The notes under the pieces: model-generated | The model's input: only the letters and a program-made list of their open reading frames with translations | The model's database searches: none | What the model was told of the DNA's origin: nothing | Shown: positions 38,839 through 39,923 of the stretch, piece after piece | Layout: every line of letters begins with the position of its first letter | Numbering within the stretch: position 1 is the first letter of the stretch | IMG/VR virus record: IMGVR_UViG_2675903308_000004 | DNA: 64,000 nt | DNA from: an uncultured virus (IMG/VR IMGVR_UViG_2675903308_000004) | Lineage: Duplodnaviria > Heunggongvirae > Uroviricota > Caudoviricetes | Direction: 5' to 3' (one strand) | Position numbers and translations under genes: made by a program

Positions 38839-39923
38839 ATGCAAAAACATAAATTCCCCTATAATTGGAGGCTTTCAGAAGCCAAATTCACGAAAGATAA
38901 AGGCAAAGTGTTCTCTTGTTTTGCGTGTGGTGGTGGCTCTACAATGGGTTACAAGTTAGCCGGATTTGATGTAATTGGCTGCAATGAGATAGACGCAAAG
39001 GTTAATCGGTGTTATGTGGCTAACCACTCACCCCGATATAATTTTTTGGAAGATATACGAACATTGAGAGAGAGAGAGAGAGAGAGAGAGAGAGAGAGCT
39101 ACCGCCCGATCTTTACAATTTGGATATTTTGGACGGTTCTCCCCCATGCTCCACCTTCTCCATTGCCGGAAATCGTGAAAAGGATTGGGGTAAAGAAAAG
39201 AAATTCAGAGAGGGGCAATCTGCACAAGTTCTTGATACGCTTTTCTTTGATTTCATAGCTTTAGCAAGGGTATTACAACCAAAAGTTGTAGTAGCCGAAA
39301 ATGTGAAAGGTTTACTTATGGGAAGTGCAATAGACTATGTTAGGCGCATATATAAAGATTTTGATAACGCAGGCTATTATTGTCAGCATTTCCTTCTTGA
39401 TGCGTCAAAAATGGGTGTTCCTCAGAAAAGAGAACGGATCTTCTTTATTTGCATTAGACATGATTTAGGGATCAATTTTTTGAAGGTATCTAATCTGTTT
39501 AACGTAGAACCATATATAAACATGGAGTTTAACGAGGATCCTATAGTATATGGTGCTTTTGCGGATTATAAAGGAAGAGCCTATGAAGGCAGAATGAGAG
39601 AACTTTTTGAACTCAGGGAACAAGGGGATATAGCACTATCAGAAGCCTATAAAAAACTCACTGGTAAACGTGGCTTTTTTAATCAGCAGTTCTGTTATGA
39701 AGATAGAGTTTGTTATACATTGTCTGCACACCTGGATTCATTGATACCATTTAAGCAGCCCGTCTATCTATCCACTTCTGAGGTATGTAATATATCCACG
39801 TTCCCACAAGATTATAATTTTTGTGGTTTATCGCCACACTACATTTGTGGTATGAGTGTTCCACCCGTAATGATGGCTCAGATAGCCACACGTATTTATG
39901 AACAATGGTTGTCGAAATTATGA
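38839..39923 (+). CDS. DNA (cytosine-5) methyltransferase, out of frame at an (AG)16 tract
   Basis: Motif I FSCFACGGG before the tract; GSPPC, ENVKG, PQKRERIFF after it in another frame. Confidence 0.9.
39067..39098 (+). repeat. (AG)16 simple sequence repeat
   Basis: 32-nt perfect dinucleotide tract inside the methyltransferase. Confidence 0.95.

Follow-up and report, generated by a model that had tools for sequence, protein, structure and literature searches.

A length-variable AG repeat that very probably switches the reading frame of an orphan cytosine methylase gene in a prophage

Is a prophage DNA methylase gene whose reading frame is broken by a long dinucleotide repeat simply a dead gene, or one that is switched off for the time being? 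The question is raised by a C5-cytosine DNA methyltransferase-family gene (38839..39923, plus strand) in a 64,000-nucleotide stretch of uncultured virus DNA (IMG/VR record IMGVR_UViG_2675903308_000004), referred to here in its full length as the window. Both pieces of the gene match Pfam PF00145, positions 2-51 of the family being covered by the 5′ piece and positions 62-323 by a 3′ ORF at 39120-39923. The 5′ piece (38839..39066, plus strand) is the SAM-binding part and contains motif I, FACGGG (codons from 38920), together with the NEID and EDI motifs. It is followed by a perfect (AG)16 slippage run (39067..39098, plus strand), which encodes (Arg-Glu)n in a predicted surface helix or loop and is in frame when it consists of 3n units. 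The 3′ part (39099..39923, plus strand) carries the catalytic SPPC (Cys codon 39147-39149), ENV and QxRxR motifs, the recognition domain, and motif X, GMSVPP, whose Met codon (39852-39854, plus strand) lies at the position of HhaI N304 and CmoX R350. The initial annotation had placed motif I before, and the PC and ENV motifs after, a perfect 32-nt tract, and the gene is arranged exactly in that way. No other long dinucleotide run occurs in the 64-kb window, and the chance expectation of (AG)16 is about 4e-16 per window by a first-order Markov estimate.

Reading through the run with the window's own flanks yields 360 aa at 15 units and 362 aa at 18, whereas 16 units give a 139-aa product (38839..39258, plus strand) that ends at 39258 without the catalytic Cys. 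The proposal that 15 or 18 units open the frame and 16 close it was borne out, in that only multiples of three are open and natural in-frame alleles, reading ...TL-RERE...-LPPDLYNLDILDGSPPC, have 9, 12, or 15 units. The count of 16 for the window rests on a single assembly, and contig L018 also has 16. The leftover methylase ORF, 267 aa from the TTG at 39120, lacks motif I and so, given the known role of that motif, would not be expected to bind SAM. The methylase stop codon overlaps the ATG of the next gene at 39920 (ATGA, 39920-39923), and the OFF state could reduce translation of coupled downstream genes.

The gene belongs to a gut prophage of the Bacteroides type. The IMG/VR record is classed as a provirus, and from about 13 kb on it contains tail, tape measure, portal, terminase, and replication genes as well as a DGR-type reverse transcriptase; the reverse transcriptase lies beside a tail protein gene (20786-23413, minus strand), likely as part of a diversity-generating retroelement. 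Positions 1-13000 of the window hold a separate integrase/primase element with other site usage (GATC 4 versus 43 expected), in which a 586-aa gene (199-1959) gives weak helicase and pAgo-system matches. The methylase is part of an accessory operon that runs on the plus strand, opposite the head genes. Bacteroides genomes contain named relatives of the gene, as do phages Versailles, LoVEphage, BI-TP1, and PV4-TP1; Versailles and the prophage have a common gene order. Searches of the neighbouring ORFs, several of which are unnamed, with Pfam, PHROGs, and PADLOC revealed no cognate restriction nuclease, and PADLOC returned one marginal HTH match and no other defence match; since no restriction nuclease was recognised nearby, the methylase is regarded as an orphan. 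A putative scaffold protein contains an in-frame 9-bp tandem repeat (35989-36062) encoding (KEP)n. A fusion of a head-morphogenesis protein with an ADP-ribosyltransferase domain (PHROG ‘Bxa’; 44610-47072, minus strand) is faced by genes for an ADP-ribosylglycohydrolase (42598-43374) and an RtcB ligase (41150-42337), the latter with its own promoter-like box at 41134.

Natural copies of the gene differ widely in the length of the run. IMG/VR copies at 95% identity or more carry 7-16 AG units, with 9 of 24 in frame, and more distant AG-bearing loci, counted without those that lack the 5′ part, carry 4-15 units, with 11 of 26 in frame; the public records may share source samples, and these copy counts are not fully independent. 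In an independent pattern scan of metagenomes, 33 of 34 loci had pure runs of 5-17 units (9/33 in frame), and an interrupted run was found at one. The in-frame share is indistinguishable from one third (p 0.67 for the IMG/VR copies and 0.58 for the metagenome contigs), so that no selection on the ON or OFF state is visible. Comparison of flanking sequences (59 sequences, comprising 58 fetched loci and the window, of which 44 have full 1.6-kb flanks) revealed that AG length is unequal in 45 of 52 pairs with identical 1.6-kb flanks. Ten loci that share one flank haplotype range from 8 to 13 units and include both ON and OFF alleles; copies with the haplotype of the window itself have 10, 14, and 16. 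In one study, four samples share a 30.3-kb contig that has 11 units in three samples and 10 in the other and is otherwise identical across the 801 bp compared, a length change from OFF to OFF. Nine other short repeats of the prophage, examined as a control in 6-19 copies each, are invariant. Among named isolates, the run has 11 units in B. acidifaciens DSM 15896 and four in phage Versailles. In Logan contigs, four of eight sequencing runs break at the AG run and the other four span it; in sequencing run X18, which is labelled as RNA, contigs flank the AG run on either side, but this gives no indication of transcription.

The AG run has the sequence properties of a contingency locus, namely a repeat within the coding region that sets the frame and a length that changes much faster than the flanking DNA. 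The earlier view of an ON/OFF slippage switch, now OFF, is backed by this natural variation and by the independent switches in relatives that are described below; in related prophages the tract is not fixed, and lengths of 4-17 units occur across assemblies and isolates. We consider it very probable that the run truly varies in length and that it switches the frame.

What the switch is for is a separate matter. We consider it reasonably probable that the AG run serves, within an orphan prophage cytosine methylase gene, as a bet-hedge against restriction and modification-dependent defences or against the cost of the enzyme. Slipped-strand mispairing would change the AG length both when the host replicates the prophage and during lytic replication. 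About a third of the phage lineages would then make the methylase and methylate their own DNA against host restriction enzymes, and the remaining lineages would stay unmodified, a state suited to hosts that cut modified DNA or to conditions under which the enzyme costs more than it gains. Despite its 3-7 additional Arg-Glu pairs, the ON protein would be active and take its methyl group from SAM, the operon would be expressed mainly after induction, and alternating selection by restriction and modification-dependent nucleases would maintain the switch.

The site usage of the phage part (window 13001-64000 plus the rest of the record) bears on this proposal. CTAG, GGCC, and CGCG do not occur at all (114, 92, and 32 expected), 20 six-base palindromes expected at least three times each are absent, and CGWCG, GCSGC, and AAGCTT are likewise missing; GATC (213 versus 215 expected), CCWGG, GCWGC, and GCGC are kept. 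These absences strongly suggest selection by restriction, a pressure that the motif counts do not tie to the methylase under study. Versailles has no adenine methylase and contains 0 GATC versus 135 expected in the 40.8 kb examined, and the retained C-containing motifs differ between Versailles and the prophage. A comparison of three phages fits a protective role of the methylases, if only anecdotally. The hedge between restriction and modification-dependent defence that had been put forward initially is consistent with the site avoidance on its first side, whereas for the second side no modification-dependent host nuclease was identified.

An alternative, which had also been raised initially as a rewiring of the lysogen's methylome and which we regard as unlikely, is that the locus is a phasevarion, in which the methylase would be expressed in the lysogen and its switching would alter host methylation and host gene expression. 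The operon lies behind a putative promoter, TTTG-N20-TATATTTG (36560..36591, plus strand; kept in 13 of the 17 near-identical loci that cover the site), which we take to be the Bacteroides housekeeping promoter consensus. A host-type promoter would suit expression in the lysogen, as would the orphan status of the methylase and the recombination of its 5′ switch modules with different 3′ recognition domains (L020 and P0010), which resembles that of mod alleles. A sigma-70 scan gave chance level (28 versus 32.8). Between the promoter boxes, however, lies a 16-bp palindrome (36561-36576) that may be an operator and would then suggest repression; it has one perfect copy and, at two mismatches, 7 matches versus 2.9 expected, a weak excess. 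In the available text of PMC13076061, the prophage methylase PamA is described as altering host traits, whereas many methylases of Bacteroides mobile elements appear silent in culture according to the part of PMC10333322 that was available. The avoidance of sites suggests that the main pressure comes from restriction and thereby favours an anti-restriction hedge over a host phasevarion.

It is also possible, but improbable, that the run is a neutral by-product, in which a microsatellite arose from the Arg-Glu codons of a tolerant loop and now drifts in a weakly selected accessory gene, without being maintained as a switch. The loop of relatives without an AG run reads LKEKEL, LKYREL, or LKERNL, a ready seed for such a repeat, and the distribution of frames is neutral. 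Versailles, an isolated phage, is OFF with (AG)4, which implies that the methylase gene is dispensable on some hosts. Several observations speak against drift alone. When AG-bearing copies are compared in pairs, the dN/dS ratio of the 3′ part is 0.045-0.26 in the nine pairs that could be estimated (another two were saturated), and most polymorphisms within the two main clades are synonymous (13 versus 7 and 56 versus 17). The gene thus remains under purifying selection, OFF alleles seldom bear other lesions, and interrupted runs are rare (1 of 34). Among distinct genes, the reading frame is intact in 15/41 of the AG type, 8/26 of the C type described below, and 78/82 of those with no run. Of about 50 conserved 5′ codons, 22-24 differ between AG-bearing lineages, and the run is therefore either old or has arisen more than once; because the tree is a quick version and the gene a mosaic, no order of events is claimed. 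In one protein, P0017, the first operon gene is fused to the 3′ part of the methylase at a common TTGAGAGA; the junction joins window position about 36890 to the AG run and implies either that 2.2 kb were deleted or that the repeat led to a misassembly.

A neutral origin is further opposed by other switches with the same effect. The LoVEphage-type clade has no AG run, but a run of C7-C11 just after the start codon, a different repeat in a different place, which is in frame at 9 and ON in 9 of 31 copies. Among the records in GenBank, two LoVEphage genomes are ON, and two others are OFF, as are BI-TP1 and PV4-TP1. The prophage also has a second orphan methylase, of the phage N6-adenine type and Dam-like (56173..56661, minus strand; its TIGR01712 match is below the cut-off), which is in frame here and contains a G9 run (56481..56489, minus strand) encoding WGGV. 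Its relatives have G8, G9, G10, or G11 (3, 15, 1, and 1 of 20, respectively) and are mostly ON. In the LoVEphage homologue of the adenine methylase, G8 is ON twice, and G7 and G6 are OFF. Seven contigs on which the states of both methylases could be read include the combinations ON/ON, OFF/ON, and OFF/OFF. The two longest repeats of the phage part lie in its two methylase genes, a coincidence with a chance of about 4e-4 to 9e-4, which also counts against a by-product. At the position of the AG loop, other lineages have WGGV or LGGGR, and cluster members stop exactly at WGG or GGG, which suggests G runs at this position. These poly-Gly loop variants (P0011, P0012, P0020, and P0033) are known from protein sequences only, and their DNA was not found in the viral contigs or in two samples of 401 genomes. 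On the evidence of the AG run, the LoVEphage C run, and the variable G run of the adenine methylase, repeat switching of phage methylases has arisen repeatedly. LoVEphage MW660583 (L418) has G8-G10 or C8 runs at 14448, 14987, 19045, 19730, and 23991, including in a radical-SAM gene and at the starts of two others, the C5 methylase and a PAPS-reductase-like gene; these runs may form a set of contingency loci in DNA-modification genes.

The chemistry of the mark is the subject of a third alternative, namely that the switched enzyme resembles CmoX and transfers to cytosine some group that is not methyl. The natural in-frame 9-unit allele L008 scores 118.7 bits against TIGR00675 (dcm; cut-off 100.65) and has motifs I, IV (PC), VI (ENV), and VIII (QxRxR) in the order of the C5 family. 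In the predicted structure of the ON protein (pLDDT 90, and 86-92 around the Arg-Glu insert), the Arg-Glu stretch forms short helices between motifs III and IV, and the fold is HhaI-like, with Z scores of 28.9 to HaeIII and 28.7 to HhaI (rmsd 2.8-2.9). The best match by both sequence and structure is nevertheless CmoX (8YF3), which is the closest solved relative (E 1e-46 versus 4e-21 for HaeIII; about 32% identity; Z 34.0 versus 28.9 for HaeIII). CmoX, a DNA cytosine C5-carboxymethyltransferase, is defined by SPPC and by R350, which replaces HhaI N304 (PMC12783734, available text). The prophage enzyme has the SPPC, within DGSPPC, and shares the insert after it, and a distant relative, P0021, has Arg in motif X (GRSVPP). 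However, the query lacks the canonical motif X Asn of the methyl-donor pocket (HhaI N304), and the residue aligned with it and with SpCmoX R350 is Met (GMSVPP), as it is in 115 of 120 homologues. No match to cmoA (TIGR00740) was found in the prophage record, none of four related records has one over the cut-off, and no CmoY-type ligase is annotated among the prophage ORFs. Membership in CmoX was ruled out by the lack of R350 and cmoA, a CmoX-like GC-wide target is unsupported (GGCC, CGCG, GCSGC, and AAGCTT are absent from the phage part), and a transferase of this kind is very unlikely. The product is likely to be 5mC. The assignment as a C5 methyltransferase made at the outset stands for family, fold, and motifs, with the qualification that the donor-gate Asn is Met and that the nearest structure is CmoX. 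A CmoX-sister family with at least 8000 matches has Met at the donor-gate position, with one Arg-bearing member (GRSVPP).

That the length differences are assembly or sequencing artefacts is scarcely credible, because the contig breaks at the AG run are set against lengths of 4-17 units in many assemblies and in both named isolates, short runs that lie well inside the read length, and other repeats that are invariant.

The reading of the AG run as a hedging switch has precedents. The agt contingency locus of phage T2 toggles between two restriction systems (Gomez, Barrick, and Waters; PMC12633550). According to the available text of that article, it resembles the AG switch as a slippage repeat in a phage DNA-modification gene with reversible frameshifts, and a hedge between restriction and modification-dependent nucleases was proposed there as well. 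It consists of short poly-A runs in a glucosyltransferase gene of a lytic coliphage, with variants near 1e-3, whereas here a long dinucleotide run lies in a methylase gene of a temperate gut phage and about two thirds of the natural copies are OFF; the same text mentions neither dinucleotide repeats nor Bacteroides. A polyG run in the bpm methylase of Bordetella phage BPP-1 was noted in 2004 (Liu et al., as cited in PMC12633550), and a G8 run is visible inside bpm in NC_005357. Like this prophage, BPP-1 is temperate and DGR-bearing, with a repeat run in a methylase gene; bpm, however, is an adenine methylase with a short mononucleotide run that, per the available part of PMC12633550, was not studied as a switch, whereas the present enzyme is C5-type and comes with population-level evidence. 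An AG run within a methyltransferase coding region is found in M.MmyCI of Mycoplasma mycoides subsp. capri, where (AG)12 is off and (AG)10 is on and active (PMC3498834, available text). M.MmyCI and the Type III mod phasevarions involve chromosomal Type III m6A enzymes with a res partner, in contrast to the orphan, phage-borne, C5-type enzyme described here. Orphan prophage methyltransferases of the Bacteroides fragilis group are Type II-like and exchange modules between phages, as here; repeat-based switching, unlike for the AG gene, is not reported in the available part of that work (PMC10333322). A literature search, for which most subscription papers were outside the scope, found no paper on repeat switching in the family of the prophage methylase. 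Phage contingency loci and AG-switched methylases were thus already known.

Gene content is a poor guide to the strain-level host range of gut phages. Tentatively, and at no more than modest odds, prevalent temperate gut phages of Bacteroidales may have placed slippage switches on orphan methylases repeatedly and independently, such that their populations would mix up to four heritable methylation states that set strain-level host range, and the C5-type enzyme may even add a non-5mC mark. If common Bacteroides phage methylases, including that of LoVEphage, flip by slippage, the presence of the gene misleads, and automatic annotation does take the truncated 3′ ORF for a functional methylase. 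In that case, the epigenetic state could be read in metagenomes from the length of the repeat. The hedge can be tested directly, since both natural ON and OFF alleles and cultured phages (Versailles, LoVEphage, BI-TP1, and PV4-TP1) exist. In Bacteroides genomes, methylase genes outnumber the detected motifs (PMC10333322, available text), and slippage switching, if true, would help to explain this excess.
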